IMG/VR virus record: IMGVR_UViG_2534681996_000012
Origin: a virus
Taxonomy: Duplodnaviria > Heunggongvirae > Uroviricota > Caudoviricetes
DNA length: 39,373 nucleotides
Direction: 5' to 3' (one strand)
The notes under the pieces are model-generated. The model was given only the letters and a program-made list of their open reading frames with translations. It did not search any database and was not told the origin of the DNA. A program made the translations under genes and the position numbers. Position 1 is the stretch's first letter. The number at the start of each line of letters is the position of its first letter. Of the stretch, positions 1,289 through 34,408 are shown one piece after another.

Positions 1289-1771
1289 CTATCTTGTCAG
1301 GGTGTCATACTGTTTTTCGCAGACTCTTCCGGCTTCGGCTGCCCGGTCAGCATACTCTGCCAGTTGTCTGTTTCTCTCGAGAGATTTGCTGAGCACGTCG
1401 GCAAGCAAAACTCCGGTGTCTGCGGCTGACGTCCCAGCGCCGACAATGGCGTTATACTGCCTGAGCTGCTCACGGATGGCAAAGAGTTGTTGCTGCAACC
1501 TGCCAGCGCGAGCGGCAGCATCAAGAGCATCATTGCGCGCCTGGTCGATTCTCTGCTGCGCTTCACGTTCATTGGTCACTTTCTCCTGTTCGTAGTACTG
1601 ACGAACTTTGTCTTCTTCGTCTTTGCGGTCTTCTTCCGCCTGCGCATACCCGGCATCGTACTGGCGACTGCCGTGTATATTCCAGGCAACCACTCCGACG
1701 ATGAACAGAGCAGCAAGCATCACCACGATAATCAGTTGTTTCCAATATGCTTTTACGAATGCCCAGATCAT
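1289..1771 (-). CDS. Rz-like i-spanin
   Basis: N-terminal TM segment ([18 protein letters not shown]) then charged coiled-coil; ATG overlaps endolysin stop (ATGA); last gene of lysis cassette. Confidence 0.7.
1297..1572 (-). CDS. Rz1-like o-spanin lipoprotein embedded in Rz in another frame
   Basis: ATG at 1572 with AGGAG 9 nt upstream; signal peptide [26 protein letters not shown] with lipobox; Pro-rich mature part; lies wholly inside the Rz ORF. Confidence 0.6.
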   Translation of the reverse strand: MNVKRSRESTRRAMMLLMLPLALAGCSNNSLPSVSSSGSITPLSALGRQPQTPEFCLPTCSANLSRETDNWQSMLTGQPKPEESAKNSMTP

Positions 1772-2397
1772 ATAGCCAGCACCTTACTGGCAGTGACGTA
1801 CCGCGAGCGCCGGTCGTCGATGCCGTTCCGGCCACCATTGATAATCAGAGTTACACGTGCAATATCACCGGTATACTTCATGCATCCTTTGCTGGCAAAG
1901 AACCACGCCGCGCTACGAGCCGCGTATTCGTCCTGCGCCAGCAGTTCAGGATTCTCCAGCAGGTCAACTTTCATACCGTTTCCGCAGTCACGATAGTTAT
2001 TCAAACCGGTAATCTGGATAAGCCCGCGCCCACGGTAATTCCAGCCATCGCCGGGAGCATTGTTACCCATGCGTTTGCTGTAAACCAGATTTGCGATCGC
2101 GCGCTGGCGCTCAAGTGGCAATGGTGGTTCACCAGCACGGCGCCCCAGTGCATTAGCCTGTCCCTGGGTGAGGCGTCCAGTCCTGACAAAGCTCGCCAGT
2201 CCGCTGACGCTGTAGTTGAAATTTTCCTGCAACCGGGTGAAGCCTCCAGACTCATGCCCGACCTGAGCAATAAACATTGCCTGATCTTCTGGTTTGCTGA
2301 TATCAAACTCTTTCATCGCAGAAGTTATATGCGAGAACCAGCGTGCGGCCAGCGCCTCGCTAATACCAGCAGCTCGTTGGAATTGTTTAATCTCCAT
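1768..2397 (-). CDS. Endolysin, glycoside hydrolase family 19 (chitinase-like lysozyme)
   Basis: Motifs [12 protein letters not shown] and [12 protein letters not shown] characteristic of GH19 phage endolysins; RBS GAGGT; between holin-like genes and Rz. Confidence 0.8.
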
Positions 2398-2695
2398 GTT
2401 TAGACCTCGTTATTTTGAAAATCTGAACAACGTTACCGCGAGTTTTAATAACCGCAGCTAGCATGACAGCGTTGATAATGACCTCAGATAAATCCACAGC
2501 CATTGGCGTACGTAACCAGATTGCATAGGCGACACGAACAGGAATACTGGCCGCAGCAACAATCAGGAAATAAGCAAGCCATCCTCCCCACCTTCGGTGT
2601 TGAGAGCCGTTACGCCGGAATGTGACAACGCGAATTGCTATGCCAGTGCAAATAACTGCATTGGTGATAAGCAAAAAAAACTCATGCGTTACCAT
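2387..2695 (-). CDS. Small membrane protein, holin/antiholin candidate
   Basis: Three hydrophobic segments and charged C-terminus; ATG 2695 with GGGGAG RBS; overlaps neighbours on both sides. Confidence 0.45.
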
Positions 2696-3086
2696 CGTCT
2701 TTTCTCCCCGGAATTAACTCGCGTGGATTATCGGAACGGTGATAAAGCCATATACCAATTCGCACAGCGACAATTGACGACACAAATGCGCCAGCAGAGA
2801 AGACGATCCCTTTCTCGAAAGAGTCCTGCGTGATGGTAGGGATCAGGCTGGCTACACCGATAAGGATGGATGCTGTAGGTTTGTAAAAGAGAAGGCCACA
2901 GAGAAAGCTAAGCATCGACAAGAGTACGCGACGACGAATGGGATACTCTACTGCAGAGGTAACAAAAATAACCGCTCCAGCCAAAGACCCCAAAGCAACC
3001 TCAGGAGGTGCTCCTGCTATAACCGCCACCAGAGAACTCATGCTAAGCCACTGATTTAAAGACTCACTGGTTATCTGAACTGACAT
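2682..3086 (-). CDS. Holin candidate
   Basis: ATG at 3086 preceded by GGTGG (track start 3095 is GTG); hydrophobic helices, charged C-terminal tail; first gene of lysis cassette. Confidence 0.55.
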   Translation of the reverse strand: MSVQITSESLNQWLSMSSLVAVIAGAPPEVALGSLAGAVIFVTSAVEYPIRRRVLLSMLSFLCGLLFYKPTASILIGVASLIPTITQDSFEKGIVFSAGAFVSSIVAVRIGIWLYHRSDNPRELIPGRKDDGNA

Positions 3087-5488: not shown

Positions 5489-5503
5489 TTACCTTTTAGG
5501 TAA
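5489..5503. promoter_or_regulatory. Operator-like palindrome TTACC-TTTTA-GGTAA in the tail-spike/accessory divergent region
   Basis: Perfect half-sites; 38 nt upstream of the LexA box. Confidence 0.5.
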
Positions 5504-5580: not shown

Positions 5581-5838
5581 ATGCAGCAGTATCACTATCC
5601 ACTGGAAGACGGATTTACCGAAAGGATTCACACGCCGGGAGGCGTCAAGTCACTGGTGGAGGGATCGCACTTGATGAAATTACTCCGGGATCTCGATAAG
5701 GATGGATTTAATGTCGATGGCCCACTTGCCGAACTGACTGCACTGATTAACTACGTCACCAGCTCACAGATGTCTATGCAGGATCTGCAAACACATCTCG
5801 ACTATTGTGCCGAACAATTACGAAAACAAACCAGATAA
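5581..5838 (+). CDS. Small protein sharing a C-terminal domain with the downstream Bro-N antirepressor; antirepressor-like regulator candidate
   Basis: ATG 5581 with GGAG 9 nt upstream (track start 5566 lacks RBS); IHTPGGVKSLVEGSHLMKLL...DLQTHLDYCAEQ aligns with IHSPSGVLGLTENSLLMNLL...DIQTHAEYIND of the 6152-6838 product. Confidence 0.55.
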   Translation: MQQYHYPLEDGFTERIHTPGGVKSLVEGSHLMKLLRDLDKDGFNVDGPLAELTALINYVTSSQMSMQDLQTHLDYCAEQLRKQTR

Positions 5839-5869: not shown

Positions 5870-5884
5870 TTACCTTTGCGGTAA
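5870..5884. promoter_or_regulatory. Operator-like palindrome TTACC-TTTGC-GGTAA between the small LexA-controlled gene and the antirepressor
   Basis: Perfect half-sites; followed by hairpins and a weak terminator. Confidence 0.5.
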
Positions 5885-6151: not shown

Positions 6152-6838
6152 ATGACTGCTAACGTAACCCCATCTGTTTTTCATTTTGAATCAGAAGCAA
6201 CCATTCGAGCCATTGTTATTGATGGAAATCCTTGGTTTGTTGCCAAAGACGTTATTAAAGCTCTTCAACTGACAAACCCCACTATGTCAATAAAATCTCT
6301 TGATGATGATGAAAGGGCTAAATTTAACTTAGGCCGTCAAGGCGAAACCAATATTATCAACGAGTCAGGCCTCTACACACTGATCCTCCGCTGCCGCGAT
6401 GCAGTAACACCAGGCACTATCCCCTACCGCTTTCGCAAATGGGTTACAGGTGAGGTACTTCCTCAGATCCGCCGCACCGGAAGTTACATTAAAAACTCGC
6501 TCCCGCAGGAAGAACGCATAAAGATGGTTGCCGACCAGGTAGCCAACGCCACGGCGTCAGCAGTGATGCAGGCAATGAAGATAGAGAACAAAACCTACAG
6601 CGCCCCGCTGAAGCCCGGCTACCGCAGCCTGATTCATTCTCCGTCTGGTGTTCTCGGCCTGACGGAGAACTCACTGCTGATGAATCTGCTGAACCAGTTA
6701 CAGGACGACGGGCACGACGTATCGGGCGCGGCGGCGGAGCTGACCACCATGTTCTGTTACATCGTTGGTGTGAGCAAATGCCTGCGTGATATCCAGACCC
6801 ACGCGGAGTACATCAACGACAAGGCAGGGTTCTTCTGA
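6152..6838 (+). CDS. Bro-N domain antirepressor-like protein
   Basis: N-terminal IRAIVIDGNPWFVAKDV...ESGLYTLILRC...FRKWVTGEVLPQIRRTGSY is a Bro-N signature; ATG 6152 with AAGGTGA 5 nt upstream; track extension to 5999 spans a terminator and is rejected. Confidence 0.75.
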   Translation: MTANVTPSVFHFESEATIRAIVIDGNPWFVAKDVIKALQLTNPTMSIKSLDDDERAKFNLGRQGETNIINESGLYTLILRCRDAVTPGTIPYRFRKWVTGEVLPQIRRTGSYIKNSLPQEERIKMVADQVANATASAVMQAMKIENKTYSAPLKPGYRSLIHSPSGVLGLTENSLLMNLLNQLQDDGHDVSGAAAELTTMFCYIVGVSKCLRDIQTHAEYINDKAGFF

Positions 6839-6904: not shown

Positions 6905-6919
6905 TTACCTTAAAGGTAA
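6905..6919. promoter_or_regulatory. Operator-like palindrome TTACC-TTAAA-GGTAA upstream of the toxin/antitoxin-like pair
   Basis: Perfect half-sites, 43 nt upstream of the 6962 ATG. Confidence 0.5.
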
Positions 6920-6961: not shown

Positions 6962-7288
6962 ATGACAAAACTTGGATTCGTGATGAGAGGTCCGGTAAGA
7001 AGCGGAACTCATGCAAAGCGTAGCAAGAGTCGTATTTTTACTGGTAAGGTTGTAGCACGTAAATCAGCTATTGGCTCGTTCAATAGTGAAAATGCGGCAT
7101 TGCGCCATATTTTTATCAGCACAAAGCCAAGAGCATCCGCTGATGTGCATACAATGACTATTCCTATCACAAAGAATATAAAGCGGATAAAAAAGCTCTC
7201 ATCTGCAGAATCAAAAGAGATATCTTTCCGCCAGCTTAACTCATTAGAAACGCATATGAAGGAAGAGGAATTCGATGTTTTTGAGTGA
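6962..7288 (+). CDS. Basic small protein with acidic C-terminal tail; antitoxin candidate
   Basis: GGAG RBS; K/R-rich N-terminal half; C-terminus ...LETHMKEEEFDVFE; stop lies 12 nt after the downstream gene's ATG. Confidence 0.4.
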   Translation: MTKLGFVMRGPVRSGTHAKRSKSRIFTGKVVARKSAIGSFNSENAALRHIFISTKPRASADVHTMTIPITKNIKRIKKLSSAESKEISFRQLNSLETHMKEEEFDVFE

Positions 7289-7787
7289 GTATAGCGGGAA
7301 GGTTATACCTACTGGTGAGTTTAAAACTGATGACTTTCTGATTTCGCTAAAAGATGCTTTTAAACAACACTGGCGTCATGGTCATCATCCTGATCTGGGA
7401 AAAGATACTCTTTTTGAAAGACCAGACGAAGTATTAGGTTTCCATCTCAGAAAGGTTCATGTCAATATTGGTGAATATGCATCATATTCATACTCATGTA
7501 CTGAACAGTGTTGGGATGAGTGGTCATATGGATTGATTGATGAACAAGGAAATTACAGGCCAAAACCAACCAGTAACGCATATCTCATATATGCAGTCAA
7601 TGAAATAAGAGATGCAGCCTTACTAGCTTATTGGGACCCGCCCGCACACACCAAAGCTAACGCAAAAGTTTGGATGGATTCCGTATTGAATTTCACAAAA
7701 TTATTTCATGAACGAACGAATACAGCTCCACTTAGTAGAAATGTTTATCCGTGGGATTATTCGTACAAATCCAAAAAGCCTGCATAG
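7275..7787 (+). CDS. YafO-like toxin candidate (ribosome-dependent mRNA interferase family)
   Basis: Blocks DDFLISLKD, PDLGKDTLFERPD, FHLRKVHVNIG, AYLIYAV and ALLAYWDPPAH resemble the YafO signature as I recall it; GAGGAA RBS; AT-rich. Confidence 0.45.
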   Translation: MFLSEYSGKVIPTGEFKTDDFLISLKDAFKQHWRHGHHPDLGKDTLFERPDEVLGFHLRKVHVNIGEYASYSYSCTEQCWDEWSYGLIDEQGNYRPKPTSNAYLIYAVNEIRDAALLAYWDPPAHTKANAKVWMDSVLNFTKLFHERTNTAPLSRNVYPWDYSYKSKKPA

Positions 7788-22636: not shown

Positions 22637-24312
22637 TGTGATTGCCCACCCTGACCACTAACTACATTCGCCATAGCTGACAAAACACTCGGATCCGAAG
22701 TTTTAGCTTCGCTTAGCGTTTTGGCACCCTGTGCCGCCGCCATCCCCATCGCCATCATTTGTTGCTGCTGTTGCTGCTGTGCCCGTTGCTGGCGAGCCTG
22801 CTCAACCTGTTCCTGCGGAACAATGACGGTTGGAGACACTCCGGACATATCAGCGAATGCATCGATCGCCTGATCAACGTTGAGTTTGTCGAGAGCTTCT
22901 GGTTTCGCTTGCGCAAGTTGACCAATGAAGTTAACCGTGGACGCCAGACTGGACAGGCCGATAGACTTCTGCGCCTGAGCCATGACGGAAATGTATTCGA
23001 CCTTCAGGGGCATACCTTCCATCGCGTCAGGCGGTGGCGGCAGCATGTTTTTACGCACCATCATCGAGAAAGCGCGGTCAATGAGAGGGTTAAGACATTC
23101 GTCGTTCAGACGCTCCAGAACCGGCCCCAACATCAGAAGCTTTTCTTCTTTCATTTCGATCACTGCTTCAACAGGCATCGAGCGGGTATTGATGTTCTGC
23201 AACATCATGAACAGATCGACAAAGTAGGCGCTGTTAATGATTTGGCGGGTGTCCTGAATGTCTGCTACCAGATCTGCTGTACTGGGGTTAACCAGATAAG
23301 CAGGCCTGAAACCATCCTGACCAGTAATCTGATCGATATACGTGATGTCGCCAGGAAGAAGAGAGGCGCGCTGATTCTTGAGGGAAGTCGGAGCAACCAT
23401 CGGCGGATTGGTGGCTTTATCAATCAACTGCGACTTGCGCTTCTGGAGAAGCTGCAATGCCTTAACAGGTCCAAGCGCCAGCATACCCGGGCATGATGAT
23501 CCATAAACATCTTCGCCGTTAACTTCCCAGCGCGGAGCCATAATTGGAAACTCATCGAATCCGGACTCACGCAACAACTTGTCGTTATCGCCGCCAACCT
23601 CGTAATAAACCGATTTGAATGGCTTGTTCTTGCTATCCAGCTTCGATGTATCGCGGTCAATGTTCGGGTAAACCGAATGCATAACTTCAATCCACTTCTC
23701 GTAGGTGCCGCTTTCCCACATGCTTTTTACGGATTCGCTGACGTTATTTAGCCCGAACTCCTGAACAAGCTGACGAACAGTCATAGAGAACTTGCGAAAA
23801 CAGGTGTCCACACTGCCACGAGGTGAGTTAGCCAGGTAGTAACTGCCTATCGGGAATGGCATTGTGCGAATGATGTCCTCGTCATCCTCCAGCACCGCCA
23901 TTGCACCAGTGCTGTATGTACCGAGGCTTCCGTATAACTGCGGCAGCGACTGGTAGAGATTCGACTTATTGAACATATCGTTCATACGGTTCTGCACCGC
24001 CTCAAGCCACAACTTAACAGGTCCATAATCCATCATTTCAGGATCTGGCGTAGCCAGGCGAAACCACGGACGCGCTGGGCTTGTGATGCCTGACATCATG
24101 CCGCTGGCGAGAGTGCGCGCCGCCATAGTCCCGGTCGAATCAATAATGCGTGTATTGCGTCGATCGTTACGGTTGACCTCAGAAGTCAGAAAGCGGGAAC
24201 CACGCGGGTTGATGTAATCACTCAACTCGCGCCAGTGCGGCTCGAACGACTGACGCTCGCTTTCAAGTTGTGCGAACTGTTTGTTCAATCGCTCTTTAGT
24301 TGTTTCCGCCAT
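22633..24312 (-). CDS. Portal (head-to-tail connector) protein
   Basis: 559 aa; GGAG RBS; Gln/Ala/Met-rich C-terminal tail as in T7 gp8; located between terminase and scaffold. Confidence 0.8.
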   Translation of the reverse strand: MAETTKERLNKQFAQLESERQSFEPHWRELSDYINPRGSRFLTSEVNRNDRRNTRIIDSTGTMAARTLASGMMSGITSPARPWFRLATPDPEMMDYGPVKLWLEAVQNRMNDMFNKSNLYQSLPQLYGSLGTYSTGAMAVLEDDEDIIRTMPFPIGSYYLANSPRGSVDTCFRKFSMTVRQLVQEFGLNNVSESVKSMWESGTYEKWIEVMHSVYPNIDRDTSKLDSKNKPFKSVYYEVGGDNDKLLRESGFDEFPIMAPRWEVNGEDVYGSSCPGMLALGPVKALQLLQKRKSQLIDKATNPPMVAPTSLKNQRASLLPGDITYIDQITGQDGFRPAYLVNPSTADLVADIQDTRQIINSAYFVDLFMMLQNINTRSMPVEAVIEMKEEKLLMLGPVLERLNDECLNPLIDRAFSMMVRKNMLPPPPDAMEGMPLKVEYISVMAQAQKSIGLSSLASTVNFIGQLAQAKPEALDKLNVDQAIDAFADMSGVSPTVIVPQEQVEQARQQRAQQQQQQQMMAMGMAAAQGAKTLSEAKTSDPSVLSAMANVVSGQGGQSQ

Positions 24313-24326
24313 TTCAATGACTCCGG

Positions 24327-24533
24327 TTACTGACCAAGCAGCGTTTTACCGCTGGTATTAGCGGTTGATGTGTCGCCCTGAGAACCGGTAAGCAGCGTAG
24401 AACTACGACCAGCAGCAGCGCGACGGCGACGTGTTTCTTCGTCGCGGGCATCAACAACGGCGGCATCCTGCTCCTGTGGTGCTGCCTGAACTTCTGGTGT
24501 TGCAGGCACTGATGGTGAGCTACCCATGCACAT
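24327..24533 (-). CDS. Hypothetical small protein upstream of portal
   Basis: ATG 24533 with GGAG 9 nt upstream; its translation-initiation region TCAATGACTCCG is duplicated in front of the portal ATG. Confidence 0.4.
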   Translation of the reverse strand: MCMGSSPSVPATPEVQAAPQEQDAAVVDARDEETRRRRAAAGRSSTLLTGSQGDTSTANTSGKTLLGQ

Positions 24534-24623
24534 ATCAATGACTCCGTACGCAATTAAATTATTACCAATTTAACCACATATGATTTATTTATCGTAGACA
24601 GTTGACATTTAACGCACGAATTA

Positions 24624-24638
24624 TTACCTTTCAGGTAA
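24624..24638 (+). promoter_or_regulatory. Operator-like palindrome TTACC-TTTCA-GGTAA downstream of a TTGACA hexamer
   Basis: TTGACA at 24602-24607; palindrome sits where a -10 element would be; upstream of tRNA-Arg. Confidence 0.5.
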
Positions 24639-24960
24639 CCAAAGAGTTCATTCCGGTTACTAACCTGACTGGCTTGTCGTTAAATTGAACAGGTGGAGTG
24701 AGCTTTTATTTTGAGCAGTACGGCGTATGGCACATGCGCCGATAGCGGTCTGGATACGTTTAAGGGGCACCCTCCCTTGCTCGGGCAAACGAACCAGGTA
24801 GCCGGAATGTGCAAGTCGAGCGGTTTTATTCCGCGCACGGGGATTCACCATCCCGGCGATTCGGTGTGACGCCTCGGAAGAGACGAGGGTACAACGATGA
24901 GAGCATTTATGGAGCCGCGACAAAGTGTGGCGCCTTAACAGGCTAAGTGCTCTCAGCGTT

Positions 24961-25037
24961 GTGGCATTAGCTCAGTTGGACAGAGCAACCGCCTTCTAAG
25001 CGGTTGGTCGCAGGTTCGAATCCTGCATGCCACGCCA
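24961..25037 (+). tRNA. tRNA-Arg (anticodon UCU)
   Basis: Cloverleaf folds by hand: acceptor GTGGCAT/ATGCCAC, D-stem GCTC/GAGC, anticodon stem ACCGC/GCGGT with loop CTTCTAA, T-arm GCAGG-TTCGAAT-CCTGC, discriminator G and encoded CCA. Confidence 0.85.
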
Positions 25038-25200
25038 GAATCACACCTGAGGACCGTGATGCCAGAAGTTCCAGGGGCTTGGCGGTGATGGTTTCCCTTG
25101 AAGGACTACCACCGCCCTTTTTACAGCAGGACGCCATTGCGATGACTTCATGCTGTAAACCAGTACAGCCACGGAAGGCGGAACTCATTGCTTCCAGTTC

Positions 25201-25225
25201 GCCCGGTTCGTCCGGGCATTTTTTT
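25201..25225 (+). terminator. Rho-independent terminator downstream of the tRNA
   Basis: GCCCGG-TTCGT-CCGGGC followed by ATTTTTTT. Confidence 0.75.
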
Positions 25226-25230
25226 GCCTG

Positions 25231-25259
25231 ATGACCACAAATTACCTTAAAGGTATAAT
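25231..25259 (+). promoter_or_regulatory. Sigma70-like promoter (ATGACC-17-TATAAT) overlapped by operator-like TTACC-TTAAA-GGTAT
   Basis: Perfect -10 TATAAT at 25254-25259; operator variant at 25242-25256. Confidence 0.55.
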
Positions 25260-25284
25260 CATGAAAAACTTTAAGGTAATTAGT

Positions 25285-26109
25285 ATGTTCGAATCGTTCA
25301 AAGAGCTGTTTTTATCTACTGCCAATACTGCCGTGCATCGAGCTAAAAACCCTGTGCTTGGTGCTTTTGTTATGTCCTGGTGCGCCTTCAACTGGAAATC
25401 ACTTCTTTATCTATTTTTTAGCAAATCAAATATAATAGATAAAATTTCATACATCTCAGATAACAGCACATGGAAAACTGTTATGTTTTATCCATGCTTA
25501 TCTGTAATTACTATCTGCTGCCTATTACCATGGGTAAACAATATCATTAACGTATGGCAAGCAAAGCCTCTTGATAATAATGACTCAATCGAAAATCACC
25601 GGAAGGCAAGAAAAATACAACGTGAAACACGGCTACAGAGATTGCTGGCTAAAAAAGACATTACTTACGAAAAAGTAAAAACAGGCGCTGAAAAAAACAT
25701 TCAAGACATGAAAGAGGAAATAATTCTTTCAAAAGACAGAATGGGACAACTCACATCTGAATTGAAAGAGAGGGAGACAGAACTGCGCGCAGAACAAGCT
25801 CGTATTTTAGAATTATCTAAGGTTATTGATGAAACAACATCTAAACTAGAAAATCTAGAAAAAGCTCACAAAAATTTAAAAAACGAATATGAGTCCTATA
25901 AGAAAAACATTCCTTTGGCAACAAATAATACAATTGCTAATGGGCTTGTAGGTCTAAAATCATTACAAGACCTTAATGAGTCCGTAAAGAAACTTGGCGT
26001 TACTGGAATTAACAATCCAGAAATCAATACATTATTGAATAATCCTCTAGTAAATATAAATGGTGGTTTAAATTCCACCTATCAAAGAAAATTAAAAACA
26101 CAAAAGTAA
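25285..26109 (+). CDS. AT-rich accessory protein: two N-terminal TM helices plus long C-terminal coiled coil
   Basis: ATG 25285 with AAGGT 7 nt upstream (track start 25231 lies upstream of the predicted promoter); hydrophobic segments VLGAFVMSWCAFNWKSLLYLFF and VMFYPCLSVITICCLLPW; K/E-rich heptad-like C-half; stop 3 nt from the convergent terL stop. Confidence 0.55.
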   Translation: MFESFKELFLSTANTAVHRAKNPVLGAFVMSWCAFNWKSLLYLFFSKSNIIDKISYISDNSTWKTVMFYPCLSVITICCLLPWVNNIINVWQAKPLDNNDSIENHRKARKIQRETRLQRLLAKKDITYEKVKTGAEKNIQDMKEEIILSKDRMGQLTSELKERETELRAEQARILELSKVIDETTSKLENLEKAHKNLKNEYESYKKNIPLATNNTIANGLVGLKSLQDLNESVKKLGVTGINNPEINTLLNNPLVNINGGLNSTYQRKLKTQK

Positions 26110-26112
26110 AAA

Positions 26113-27582
26113 TCATTCAAATGGGTCATAGTCTGTTATAGCCCTGCCCTGCTGCTGCCGTGGGTCATTAGTTTTCTTGGCTACCGGGAAAGCAAACGTC
26201 AGCAGTAGCGCATCGCCTTTACCCGGCGAACGCCCAAGCCGCTCTTTGATATCTTCCTTCGGTTCGATAACGATTTTACCGTCCACACGAACTTTGTACT
26301 CTGCCGCCGACAGGTCATCCGCTGTTTCCTGGTCATCCAGCATCCCGCCGAGCCTCAGCCATGTCTTGCATGAGTTGAACATCTCCCCGCGCTTGTTAAG
26401 CATCTGCGGGTCAGTAGACGCGCCACCGAACGGAACAAGTTGCCATGTACGGCCCCAGCCATCACCGATTGACTTCAGACCGGTTCCGTAACCGAAGTCG
26501 ATGAACACCGCGTCAGCCTGATACTGGTCTTCAAAGTCAGCGATACGCTTCGCCATAATCAGATCGTCGGTGGTCTTGTTACCAGTCCATAGCACCTTAC
26601 TGTGCAGCCCCTGCCGCAGGTATATCACAGCGTCATCAACGCCGGAGTATGCCGGGTCAACGCCGATTATCACCGGAGCATGTGCCACCTGCGCAGCGGT
26701 GACCACCCGTTTCATTGCCTCGTCAGTAAGTCCGGTAGGGATAAACTGCAATTCAGATGCATCCGGGAATATGCCGCGCACACGGATTTTAACGAAGTCG
26801 CTGTCTTCCCCGTAGTCATCAACCCATTTCTGCAACTGCTGTTTGTTGGTGCCTTCCACCGTCCGGCTGTCAATCTGCGCAGTTTTCCAGCGGTGTTTAT
26901 ATTTGCGGAAACATTCGCGGAAACGCCCGGTGTTACGTGTAGGGTTTCCGAACGCCACCCAGATAATCTCAGTGTCTTCGTCCGTTAGCGCCCCCTCAGC
27001 AACTTCCCACACCAGATCCGCAATGTTCGACGCTTCATCGAATACCACGATGATGCGTTTGCGCTCGTTGTGTAGTCCGGCGAATGCCTCAGTGTTGTGC
27101 TCAGACCAGGGGATTGCGTCAGCTCGCCACCGCTTGTCGTGCCCAGGATCATTGCTGTACATCGCGGTAGCGGTACAGGTAAACCAGTCTTTCGTGATAG
27201 CAAGGTTCGACCACTTGATAATTTCCGGCCAGGTCTTCGTTCGTAGCTGGTTGTCGGTGTTGGCGGTCACCACGACCTTACAATCCTCGCAAGTGGACAT
27301 GCCCCAGTTGATCAGCATTGAGATGAATGCGGATTTACCAATACCGTGACCAGAAGCGCGTGCCAGCATAAGCGGCTGATAGCGCGTCTCTGGATTCTGC
27401 AGGTGATCACGTATCTCTCGGAACGCATCAGCCTGCCACTGACGTGGGCCGGTAGCATGTGCCAGTTCAGTCCCCTCTTCCCCCCACGGGAACGCATAGA
27501 GGGCATAGCCAAGCGGATCGTGAGTGAACCCTGCAATATCCTCGATCAACTGCTCTTCAGGAGATAACGCTGTATCTGTCAC
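26113..27582 (-). CDS. Terminase large subunit
   Basis: 489 aa; P-loop-like SGHGIGKS; C-terminal nuclease-like region VIIGVDPAYSGVDD; overlaps small-subunit gene by 4 nt. Confidence 0.9.
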   Translation of the reverse strand: MTDTALSPEEQLIEDIAGFTHDPLGYALYAFPWGEEGTELAHATGPRQWQADAFREIRDHLQNPETRYQPLMLARASGHGIGKSAFISMLINWGMSTCEDCKVVVTANTDNQLRTKTWPEIIKWSNLAITKDWFTCTATAMYSNDPGHDKRWRADAIPWSEHNTEAFAGLHNERKRIIVVFDEASNIADLVWEVAEGALTDEDTEIIWVAFGNPTRNTGRFRECFRKYKHRWKTAQIDSRTVEGTNKQQLQKWVDDYGEDSDFVKIRVRGIFPDASELQFIPTGLTDEAMKRVVTAAQVAHAPVIIGVDPAYSGVDDAVIYLRQGLHSKVLWTGNKTTDDLIMAKRIADFEDQYQADAVFIDFGYGTGLKSIGDGWGRTWQLVPFGGASTDPQMLNKRGEMFNSCKTWLRLGGMLDDQETADDLSAAEYKVRVDGKIVIEPKEDIKERLGRSPGKGDALLLTFAFPVAKKTNDPRQQQGRAITDYDPFE

Positions 27583-28172
27583 TGATTACCATCCTGACGT
27601 TCTTTGAGTCGCTTCCTGGCTGCTGCTATGCGATCAGCAATTGTCACATTCACATTAACATCCAGACGTTCTTTGAACGCGTTGACATCAACATGCTTAC
27701 CAATCAGCTCAAGGTTCTTCACCTTGTCAGGCCATTTAATTTTTTTGAGGATTGTCTCTATCGAATCCTCGTTCATGTTCATGATGGTCGATGACAGATC
27801 AAAGCCACTAAGCGTAGTGCGCCAGATTTTCGGCCACTCACGGATTGGTTTAAGGCTCCCATCGTCGTTGAGGATGTCGATCACGTCCATCTGGTCGATC
27901 TCCACCAGGCGCATGAGAACGTAATCAGCACTGACGCGCATTCGTTTGTTGCGCTCCTCCATCAACTCGGCAATCCGTTTTTGAATGCGTTCATCGCGCA
28001 TCATGACACTGGCTTTAACTGCCGCTGTATTTGGGGAGAATCCTGCGTTAATCGCTGCCTGAGTCTGGTTTTCAGGCGTTTTGATGTATGACTGGCAATA
28101 AGCCTCCTGCATTGCTGTTAGTGGCTTAAATTGCGTTGATTTGCGTTTATAGGTTTTAGGTTCAGCAGGCAT
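27579..28172 (-). CDS. Terminase small subunit
   Basis: Basic N-terminal region; ATG 28172 with GGTGG 5 nt upstream; track start 28253 is TTG and would place a terminator hairpin inside the ORF. Confidence 0.6.
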   Translation of the reverse strand: MPAEPKTYKRKSTQFKPLTAMQEAYCQSYIKTPENQTQAAINAGFSPNTAAVKASVMMRDERIQKRIAELMEERNKRMRVSADYVLMRLVEIDQMDVIDILNDDGSLKPIREWPKIWRTTLSGFDLSSTIMNMNEDSIETILKKIKWPDKVKNLELIGKHVDVNAFKERLDVNVNVTIADRIAAARKRLKERQDGNQ

Positions 28173-28182
28173 CATAACCACC

Positions 28183-28214
28183 GTGGTAATAGTTACCGTT
28201 GTGGTAATAGTACC
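28183..28214 (-). promoter_or_regulatory. Tandem direct repeats GTGGTAATAGT(T)ACC just upstream of the terS RBS
   Basis: Two copies 18 bp apart, each containing GGTAA-TAG-T(T)ACC; sit between a terminator and the first late gene. Confidence 0.4.
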
Positions 28215-28217
28215 ATG

Positions 28218-28244
28218 CAAAATAAAGCCGCCATAGTTGGCGGC
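28218..28244 (-). terminator. Intrinsic terminator upstream of the late (packaging) operon
   Basis: On the minus strand GCCGCCA-ACTA-TGGCGGC followed by TTTATTTT. Confidence 0.65.
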
Positions 28245-28285
28245 AGTATTCAAAACCCATCAAATTCATCATGCATAATCTACTC

Positions 28286-31226: not shown

Positions 31227-31241
31227 TTACCCCTGAGGTAA
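31227..31241. promoter_or_regulatory. Operator-like palindrome TTACC-CCTGA-GGTAA overlapping the RBS of the 30879-31223 gene
   Basis: Perfect half-sites; imperfect copy TTATC-TAACA-GGTAA at 31289-31303. Confidence 0.5.
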
Positions 31242-33571: not shown

Positions 33572-33634
33572 TCACCCATAAGGTAACAAAAATCAAGGAT
33601 AGTTACCTATGGGGTGCATTTACCTGTTGGGTAA
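33572..33634. promoter_or_regulatory. Immunity-region operator cluster (three TTACC-N5-GGTAA-type sites) with divergent promoters
   Basis: TCACC-CATAA-GGTAA 33572-33586, TTACC-TATGG-GGTGC 33603-33617, TTACC-TGTTG-GGTAA 33620-33634; plus AT-rich inverted repeat TATTTAT-N8-ATAAATA at 33549-33570. Confidence 0.6.
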
Positions 33635-33689: not shown

Positions 33690-34274
33690 ATGAAAAGTAT
33701 CCAGGACGTCCGCAGGCAAAATCTCAACGACTTGATCGACCGTGAATTCAATGGTGTTCAGACGCGGATGGCAGAAAAACTTGGAACTCAGGCAAATCTG
33801 GTAAACCGCTGGGCTCTTGGCAAGAAGGTTATCGGCGACCAGGTTGCGCGAAAAATTGAAGCTGCCGCCAATAAACCCCGTAACTGGCTTGATATCGATC
33901 GCTCGCTTTCTCAGGAAGGTTTTCAGCCTGTCGGCCCAAGCGACATTGGTCAGCTGGCGGCTCACAACCTGGAACGCTGGATGAGCGAAAGCCGCGACCT
34001 TTCAACACAGGGAAAACTTCACCGCGCATCCGGCGTCGCCCAGGTGACAATCAGCCGCCTGTTAAACAATGAGGTCAGCGTTTCCATTTCCACCCTGGAG
34101 AATGTTGCATCCGCATTCGGGCGTCACGGCTATGAATTACTGATTCACCCGCACGACCCTGCGACCATCAACTATGACCGCTCGCGCTACGCATTGTTAC
34201 CCGAAACCGAGAAAGCAAAGATCGAAAGTTACATTGAATTTGTCATCAACCAGAACGAAAAAAACAAACAATAA
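33690..34274 (+). CDS. Prophage repressor, tandem HTH domains, no LexA-like peptidase domain
   Basis: Two XRE-type HTH-like segments (MAEKLGTQANLVNRWALGKK and LHRASGVAQVTISRLLNNE); no Ala-Gly cleavage site or Ser/Lys dyad; followed by terminator and operator-controlled promoter. Confidence 0.65.
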   Translation: MKSIQDVRRQNLNDLIDREFNGVQTRMAEKLGTQANLVNRWALGKKVIGDQVARKIEAAANKPRNWLDIDRSLSQEGFQPVGPSDIGQLAAHNLERWMSESRDLSTQGKLHRASGVAQVTISRLLNNEVSVSISTLENVASAFGRHGYELLIHPHDPATINYDRSRYALLPETEKAKIESYIEFVINQNEKNKQ

Positions 34275-34331: not shown

Positions 34332-34408
34332 TTACCTTAAGGGTAATTTTTTTAACTCATATCTATTGACACCAAACCAAATACGCATAATCATTACCTC
34401 AACGGTAA
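34332..34408 (+). promoter_or_regulatory. Early-left promoter (TTGACA ... CATAAT) flanked by two perfect operator palindromes
   Basis: TTACC-TTAAG-GGTAA at 34332-34346; TTGACA 34366-34371; CATAAT 34386-34391; TTACC-TCAAC-GGTAA at 34394-34408. Confidence 0.6.

Follow-up and report, generated by a model that had tools for sequence, protein, structure and literature searches.

What does a single, unusually AT-rich gene do between a tRNA gene and the packaging genes of an integrated phage? The question is raised by a 39,373-nucleotide (nt) stretch of viral DNA (IMG/VR record IMGVR_UViG_2534681996_000012, the whole of which is called the window here), in which an open reading frame (ORF) on the + strand at 25285-26109 lies between tRNA-Arg and the large terminase gene, terL. 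The window is identical (100%) to positions 2711007-2750379 of the E. coli PCN033 chromosome and represents an integrated epsilon15/phiV10-like podovirus (genus Uetakevirus) adjoining yfgH/yfgI; the surroundings of terL and the portal gene show 97-98% similarity to phiV10. A sequence-only reading of the locus had proposed a membrane-acting exclusion or abortive-infection effector. We conclude that the ORF belongs to an uncharacterised family of a familiar kind, that of phage accessory or conflict genes, and that its regulatory setting, which had gone unremarked, is informative. As the best combined explanation we tentatively favour a repressor-gated inner-membrane conflict protein with a swappable specificity end.

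The gene, its product and its family

What the sequence-only reading had described in the DNA itself largely held up. The 274-amino-acid (aa) gene at 25285-26109 is real, as indicated by its PHROG 4780 match, the starts of its homologues and purifying selection. The open frame extends from 25231 to 26109, and the true start was placed at 25285 because three lines of evidence agree: the PHROG 4780 profile begins to align at residue 19 of the long ORF, the equivalent methionine is the start in all homologues in the alignment, and the ATGs at 25231 and 25261 both lie upstream of the predicted transcription start (~25266, given a -10 box at 25254-25259), inside or just after the promoter. An AAGG Shine-Dalgarno sequence (25273-25276) is located between this transcription start and the ATG at 25285. 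The RefSeq (PGAP) start of the protein, WP_000787771.1, is at 25261, 2 nt past the predicted -10; homologue alignments favour 25285.

The AT-richness that had been noted is marked, with a G+C content of 0.337 compared to 0.546 in terL, 0.517 in the portal gene and 0.49 in the window, and a G+C content at third codon positions of 0.29 compared to 0.61 in terL; no other coding sequence of the prophage has a lower G+C content. The -10 box that had been called textbook belongs to a predicted sigma-70-type promoter (25231-25259, + strand), in which ATGACC (25231-36) and TATAAT (25254-59) are separated by a 17-nt spacer and match 10 of 12 consensus positions. This is the top promoter-like site within 24300-26700, and it is kept upstream of diverged alleles. 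At the other end, the stop codon (TAA, 26107-09) is 3 nt away from the convergent stop of terL (26113-15), as had also been reported, and a consensus scan found no convincing + strand intrinsic terminator past the ORF, the sole candidate being a weak 5-bp hairpin at 26148-64 of a kind that is matched at near chance rate. Of the features expected of a moron, the ORF shows insertion between differently filled neighbours and a deviant base composition; a promoter consensus is present and conserved, and there is no terminator downstream.

The product matches PHROG 4780 over its full length (E=2.7e-121, 405 bits), the long ORF aligning through its residues 19-292 to profile positions 1-269 of 275. 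This family is without assigned function, and its more distant kin are PHROGs 13369 and 35327. A word-indexed search returned 187 homologous clusters, all from Enterobacteriaceae and all named "hypothetical", while an exhaustive profile search gave 275 cluster representatives at E<1e-10, with Serratia, Pantoea and Vibrio among the sources. The more distant homologues were no more telling: 10 inspected by Pfam scan and 20 by name were all "hypothetical" and gave coiled-coil noise only. The earlier statement that no family is recognisable thus still stands with regard to characterised families. Searches of Pfam, NCBIfam, PADLOC and PDB, run with the sequence by itself as well as with a profile of 39 sequences, yielded only low-scoring coiled-coil matches, and homology to a structural or housekeeping phage protein, which would have spoken against an effector role, was looked for in profile and structure searches and was not found. 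In PADLOC-DB v2 the best matches were LmuB (20 bits), DruC and JetC, all within residues ~115-255, i.e. in the coiled coil, and no match to the diagnostic domains of a defence protein was obtained. Literature searches for the protein accession, for the locus tags of PCN033 and for defence or transcriptomes in Uetakevirus found nothing; neaT (PMC3573123) is a different moron, from a P2-like prophage, and is irrelevant to this ORF.

AlphaFold2 predicted an all-helical protein with a single helix across residues 134-208 (predicted local distance difference test score, pLDDT, 92-97). Between residues 100 and 215, a single a/d heptad register takes in 16 of the 26 positions with L, I, V or M, with ~7 expected; the long helix with heptad periodicity that defines a coiled coil is therefore present, in agreement with the earlier description. 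The N-terminal module is made up of an amphipathic helix, hydrophobic helices at residues 24-46 and 66-90 carrying the invariant motifs SWxAFNWK and PWxNN, a basic juxtamembrane helix and the onset of the coiled coil. The sequence-only reading had counted two N-terminal transmembrane helices. Two hydrophobic helices are indeed there, but two membrane spans were not established. The first helix is marginal (segment 27-45: Kyte-Doolittle 1.2, summed Hessa ΔG +4.5 kcal/mol) and has the invariant residues N36 and K38 mid-way along it; the second (segment 66-84: Kyte-Doolittle 2.0, summed Hessa ΔG +2.2 kcal/mol) is plausibly a membrane span. The N-terminal hydrophobic hairpin is most likely the inner-membrane anchor of the product. 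In this model it would be followed by a parallel coiled-coil stalk and then by a distal swappable module. When modelled alone, the N-terminal module gave a prediction too weak to trust (pLDDT 65, predicted template modelling score 0.30), and a Foldseek search against BFVD returned nothing at E<1.

Conservation is distributed very unevenly along the protein. The signature of the superfamily consists of ER..NP..GAF..SW..FNW...LFS (helix 1) and P...LP..N (helix 2) and does not extend past residue ~95; downstream of it lies a coiled coil of essentially arbitrary sequence. Among 118 close representatives, the N-terminal ~160 aa form a single cluster with a median identity of 79%, while the C-terminal ~110 aa split into 27 clusters at 40% identity, so that there are at least 27 types, with only 18% of pairs alignable. 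Codons 1-159 have a ratio of nonsynonymous to synonymous substitution rates (dN/dS) of 0.08 relative to the nearest allele, and 57 columns of the protein alignment are invariant. The low dN/dS shows that the gene is protein-coding and that its N-terminus is strongly constrained. Compared to other alleles, synonymous sites are saturated (proportion of synonymous differences, pS, 0.84-0.96; nonsynonymous, pN, 0.16-0.20) in carriers with a flanking backbone that is 96-98% identical, and the alleles therefore predate by far the backbones in which they sit.

The boundary between the two parts can be placed precisely by comparison with one relative (locus L005), which is 96.7% identical from the portal gene up to 25768 (aa 161); similarity is then lost until 26183, 70 nt within terL. 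Such a sharp break marks a clean recombinational swap of the C-terminal module. We accordingly divide the coding sequence (+ strand) into a conserved N-terminal module (aa 1-161, 25285-25767) and a variable C-terminal module (25768-26109), the latter comprising the remaining coiled coil and a low-confidence tail.

The operator and its predicted regulon

The sequence-only reading had seen an operator-like site over the -10 box, and this site turned out to be part of a phage-wide set. The palindrome TACCTTAAAGGTA at 25243-25255 occupies the spacer of the ORF promoter and overlaps its -10. It is one of 10 exact copies of TACC-N5-GGTA in the window, where 0.20 would be expected, with a phage-wide consensus of ~ATTACCTNNNNGGTAAT; 9 of the 10 are intergenic. 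The other copies are found upstream of a small gene at 5581 (5490-5502), upstream of the BRO-N antirepressor gene (5871-5883), upstream of a YafO-toxin module (6906-6918), at a promoter-like site ~320 nt upstream of the tRNA (TACCTTTCAGGTA, 24625-24637), between early genes (31228-31240), in the cI/cro intergenic region (33621-33633) and twice between the repressor gene and the early-left operon (34333-34345 and 34395-34407). The sole non-intergenic site, at 28194-28206, falls within the annotated 5' end of terS. Wherever -35 and -10 boxes can be read, the palindrome overlaps or directly follows the -10, a placement which, as far as the DNA tells, is that of a repressor site. In the GenBank record of epsilon15, copies of this motif are labelled "repressor; lysogeny" as binding sites. 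Further to that, the operator is present in all 19 alleles of the slot survey described below, and its distance from the downstream ATG is ~44 nt in each of the alleles inspected, even at ~50% protein identity.

The candidate repressor (194 aa), encoded at 33690-34274, has two helix-turn-helix domains (YdaS-like and HTH_3), while Pfam shows no self-cleaving protease domain of the S24 type in it. Given this, and the presence of a BRO-N antirepressor gene, induction of the prophage is probably antirepressor-driven. In the close relative vB_EcoP_ZX5 an antirepressor-driven switch was demonstrated (PMC9782041). The antirepressor gene of the window (6152-6838) is located in an immI-like block between tailspike and ejection-protein genes.

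We suggest that the phage repressor would bind the palindrome overlapping the -10 of the ORF and would keep the gene silent in the lysogen, and that in its absence, upon infection or induction, the ORF would fire together with the antirepressor and the early operons. From the arrangement of sites we consider it likely that the gene is off in the native lysogen and is switched on after infection or induction through the loss of repressor binding. A repressor-type operator at the promoter sets the ORF apart from the classical behaviour of lysogen-protecting exclusion or abortive-infection genes. Palindrome sites lie just upstream of four of the reverse-oriented accessory units within the late region, and the regulon is useful regardless of what the ORF does, as it offers a testable rule for recognising lysogen-silent accessory genes.

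A YafO-family toxin gene and a small ORF at 6962-7787 (G+C content 0.40 and 0.39) form a toxin-antitoxin-like pair. The only other exact TACCTTAAAGGTA 13-mer precedes the start of this pair by 44 nt, and the pair appears to be gated in the same manner as the ORF at 25285-26109.

The ORF promoter region also contains a perfect 13-bp inverted repeat on the + strand (left arm 25240-25252, right arm 25269-25281; ΔG -15.9 kcal/mol, z -2.5), the right arm of which holds the Shine-Dalgarno AAGG. Pairing of the two arms in RNA could take place only in readthrough transcripts from upstream. The repeat was considered as an RNA switch and dropped, since other alleles do not conserve the right arm; a function is ascribed to the left part alone, that of the operator. 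An Rfam scan of 24200-26400 had the tRNA as its sole match.

The variable slot and candidate functions

The surroundings of the gene were surveyed in 80 IMG/VR loci, collected through TerL, and 8 reference loci; the analysis covered the 81 of these 88 in which both anchors were present. Because loci were ranked by the similarity of their TerL, the sample is biased. Similarity to relatives breaks at the terminator of the tRNA unit (25201-25225), and against relatives the slot has its edges at 25225 and at 26110 or 26183. Between this terminator and the terL stop the slot holds + strand cargos of two designs, with more than 7 alternative cargos in the 81 loci. Short cargos begin right after the terminator with a common TAAGGTGA ribosome-binding site, have no promoter or operator of their own, and end ~96 nt before terL, this interval containing a terminator. 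The membrane coiled-coil family, found in 19 of the 81 loci (14 of 74 among those from IMG/VR), always has its own promoter and operator, and its genes either overlap the terL stop or end no more than ~20 nt from it. In one locus (L092) an Acb4-like gene and a member of the membrane coiled-coil family stand in tandem. The gene also occurs in the plaque-forming isolates EC.W1-9, BUCT711 and KO-TP1. In phiV10 and epsilon15 the slot is filled by an unrelated gene, which makes the ORF a non-essential accessory gene, one of several interchangeable cargos.

The most frequent cargos of the slot in relatives are the short PF13876 genes, found in ~31 of the 81 loci, including phiV10 gp03 (L001, 2442-2813) and epsilon15 gp50 (L003, 2223-2588). 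Others belong to PHROGs 4846, 3163 and 27507, which are candidate counter-defence genes, and one locus (L051) has a PF11195 (Tad2-like, anti-Thoeris) gene. PF13876 proteins are Acb4 sponges acting against cyclic-oligonucleotide-based antiphage signalling systems (CBASS), and both Acb4 and Tad2 are experimentally defined counter-defence (bioRxiv 10.1101/2024.12.30.630793, 10.1101/2025.07.12.664507). A Pfam scan of the ORF gave no match to PF13876 or PF11195, both of which are confined to alternative cargos of the slot.

Relatives are also carried outside the epsilon15-like phages. A Klebsiella prophage of a different type has acquired the cassette together with ~150 nt of Uetakevirus upstream sequence, and keeps the operator though the local cI/cro operators differ; because of this difference, the copy is predicted to be constitutive. 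Relatives in this and other foreign carriers are probably constitutive and tolerated, and a tolerated constitutive copy is evidence against strong intrinsic toxicity. A distant relative resides on an SSU5-like phage-plasmid of ~110 kb, in reverse orientation between replication and tail-fibre genes. Other distant relatives were seen on Klebsiella IncF plasmids (L097, 6001-6309; L098, 6001-6864), directly after a DUF1778/GNAT toxin-antitoxin pair, one of the IncF copies being cut off by IS1. Carriage by phages, a phage-plasmid and plasmids indicates that the family is a general accessory of mobile elements and not a component of one lytic programme.

HK97 gp15 and T4 Imm are inner-membrane superinfection-exclusion proteins, and T4 Imm is produced during lytic growth, not from a prophage. 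Together with P22 SieA they are like the ORF product in being small, phage-encoded, non-essential, membrane-anchored and highly diverse; they differ in having no sequence similarity to it and no long coiled coil. SieA has 162-164 aa, three predicted transmembrane helices and a cytoplasmic FxRYPxEAxxFNK motif, and its locus is between homologues of gene 16 and gene 9 (PMC10883804). A SieA-type protein was ruled out for the ORF, which encodes 274 aa with at most two hydrophobic helices, has no FxRYPxEAxxFNK motif and is sited between a tRNA gene and terL. In the entry-exclusion proteins Eex of SXT/R391 and TraS of F, a conserved membrane part is combined with a variable region that sets specificity. 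The ORF product shares this layout and has distant relatives on IncF plasmids; however, these adjoin the DUF1778/GNAT pair and insertion sequence elements, and not the neighbours expected in a transfer operon. With the Acb4 and Tad2 genes of sister phages the ORF shares the slot, the strand and the position downstream of the same operator-controlled tRNA promoter, but their products are small and soluble and the genes promoterless, whereas the ORF has its own operator-bearing promoter. As membrane-anchored coiled-coil proteins, ATP synthase subunit b and the ZorA tail can be compared. A spanin or holin was rejected, as a complete lysis cassette (holins, endolysin and a DUF2514 spanin, 1289-3086) is located elsewhere; nor was any + strand ORF of at least 40 aa embedded in or next to 25285-26109, as would be needed for the o-spanin partner of an i-spanin.

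Taken together, a conserved membrane-type module with a stalk, old plug-in alleles and carriage by mobile elements point to a role in conflict, with recognition of a partner that varies. We suggest that the product would be an inner-membrane conflict protein whose variable end recognises a variable partner of competing phages or mobile elements. Competitors would be excluded while the resident phage develops, following the logic of T4 Imm and Sp and not that of lambda Rex, while in carriers without the cognate repressor (the Klebsiella prophage, the phage-plasmid and the IncF plasmids) the gene would be constitutive and would provide ordinary exclusion. We regard it as possible rather than probable that the product acts during lytic development to keep competing phages or elements out at the inner membrane. 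Should this be true, the family would represent a widespread Gammaproteobacterial group and a phage conflict protein of a new kind, membrane-anchored and equipped with a plug-in module for specificity, and counter-defence and exclusion genes could be sought in a small space, the terL-proximal slot of epsilon15-like phages.

Several observations weigh against this proposal. Repressor binding is deduced from the distribution of sites and from a database annotation. The first hydrophobic helix being marginal, the coiled coil could be cytoplasmic or periplasmic. Coiled coils diverge quickly, and part of the C-terminal hypervariability may come from weak constraint and not from an arms race. Sequence and fold searches gave no homology to exclusion, defence or anti-defence proteins, and the functionally named neighbours in the slot are all counter-defence genes. 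As regards the exclusion or abortive-infection effector of the sequence-only reading, its outline survives in that the gene is real, non-essential, of foreign composition and endowed with a membrane-type N-terminus, but the operator predicts it to be off in the lysogen, and the genes named at this position in relatives (Acb4, Tad2) do not make a defence context.

It may be that the product is instead a counter-defence protein, which early in infection neutralises a membrane-associated or membrane-acting component of host immunity, its C-terminal module being matched to diverse targets. The Acb4-family and Tad2-like genes that occupy the slot in relatives, the stacking of an Acb4-like gene with a family member, the presence of the gene in plaque-forming isolates and a repressor-gated early expression would all suit such a role. 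The design of the ORF, however, is unlike that of the short cargos, in that it has its own promoter and operator, other boundaries and no common ribosome-binding cassette. We know of no integral-membrane coiled-coil counter-defence protein, and no sequence or fold similarity was found to any anti-defence family searched. The IncF relatives beside toxin-antitoxin pairs fit poorly, and a constitutive copy in a foreign prophage would be useless for counter-defence. All considered, we judge this explanation to be rather doubtful. A classical moron, expressed by the resting prophage and protecting the lysogen by superinfection exclusion or by membrane-damage abortive infection, would agree with the opposite orientation to the late genes, the own promoter and the foreign composition, with a membrane-plus-variable-domain layout like that of Sie and entry-exclusion proteins, with old alleles that are maintained and shuffled, and with carriage by plasmids and a phage-plasmid; the Klebsiella copy, having no cognate operator system, is probably expressed in its lysogen. 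We nevertheless find it unlikely: in the native prophage the -10 is overlapped by a multi-copy repressor-type operator that is also found at the antirepressor promoter and is kept in 19 of 19 survey alleles, and PADLOC matches (at most 20 bits) are confined to the coiled coil.

A role outside conflict, as a lytic helper, appears improbable. The phage phi29 protein p16.7 is a membrane-anchored coiled-coil protein, and a similar anchor for replication or packaging, a factor in lysis timing or a modulator of cell division or the envelope would fit the predicted early expression, the combination of membrane anchor and coiled coil, and the direct contact with terL, the 3' end of which is exchanged along with the gene. 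Yet the gene is dispensable, ~80% of close relatives having unrelated genes instead, lysis is already provided for by the cassette at 1289-3086, relatives are found on non-phage plasmids, and a conserved housekeeping partner sits uneasily with C-terminal modules of at least 27 unrelated types. It is barely credible that transcription matters over the protein, with convergent, unterminated transcripts from the repressor-gated promoter interfering with terS-terL and helping to time the late genes. All alleles do abut or overlap the terL stop and leave no room for a terminator, unlike the short cargos with their ~96 nt, and no convincing terminator follows the ORF on the + strand. At the same time, the dN/dS of 0.08 and the 57 invariant columns show that the protein is the selected product, relatives elsewhere are not convergent with terL, and Rho would probably stop untranslated antisense RNA soon past the stop codon.

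Lastly, the ORF and the YafO module may form a tripwire, being held off by the repressor and released upon its inactivation, e.g. by the antirepressor of a superinfecting relative. The two are the most AT-rich modules of the prophage and own the sole two exact copies of TACCTTAAAGGTA, each 42-44 nt upstream of a start codon. We consider such a tripwire a long shot, and the same applies to its supposed outcome, a repressor-guarded abortive or exclusion response with a target set by the swappable C-terminal module.

The junction with terL and the tRNA unit

The large terminase gene (26113-27582, - strand) is involved in the exchange at the 3' end of the ORF. In several relatives its last ~70 nt (26113-26182, ~23 codons) are swapped along with the C-terminal module or cargo, and as similarity returns only at 26183, the C-terminus of TerL belongs to the mosaic unit. 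Inside the 3' end of the ORF, 34 nt past the terL stop on the - strand, the consensus scan picked up a weak hairpin (26062-26079; GGTGG-N8-CCACC followed by ATTTATATTT), a possible partial terminator of terS-terL. Antisense transcription from the ORF into terL is likewise possible. As to terS, the annotated gene (27579-28253, start 28253, 224 aa) places both the operator at 28194-28206 and a terminator-like hairpin within its coding region. In related contigs terS is called as a 197-aa form, the start of which would here be 28172, behind a GGTGG ribosome-binding site, and this start looks more likely than the annotated one.

On the left, the slot is bordered by a tRNA-first accessory unit. It is headed by a promoter-like site (24595-24637, + strand; TTGACA at 24602-07) that includes the operator TACCTTTCAGGTA, the epsilon15 equivalent of which is annotated "repressor; lysogeny". 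The tRNA-Arg gene follows (anticodon UCU, 24961-25037, + strand; found by ARAGORN, and by Rfam as tRNA with 73 bits), and the unit ends at the intrinsic terminator on the + strand at 25201-25225 (GCCCGG-TTCGT-CCGGGC, one A, T7), the left boundary of the slot. This tRNA reads AGA, a codon used for 4 of the 11 arginines of the ORF compared to 12% of arginine codons elsewhere in the prophage. A stretch of ~190 nt separates the tRNA from the slot (25038-25225); it is conserved in phiV10, in epsilon15 and in the transferred Klebsiella cassette, and has terminator-like hairpins at 25081-25122 and at 25201-25225. An RNase III site is marked in the matching region of the epsilon15 record, and the segment may represent a processing element or a small RNA.

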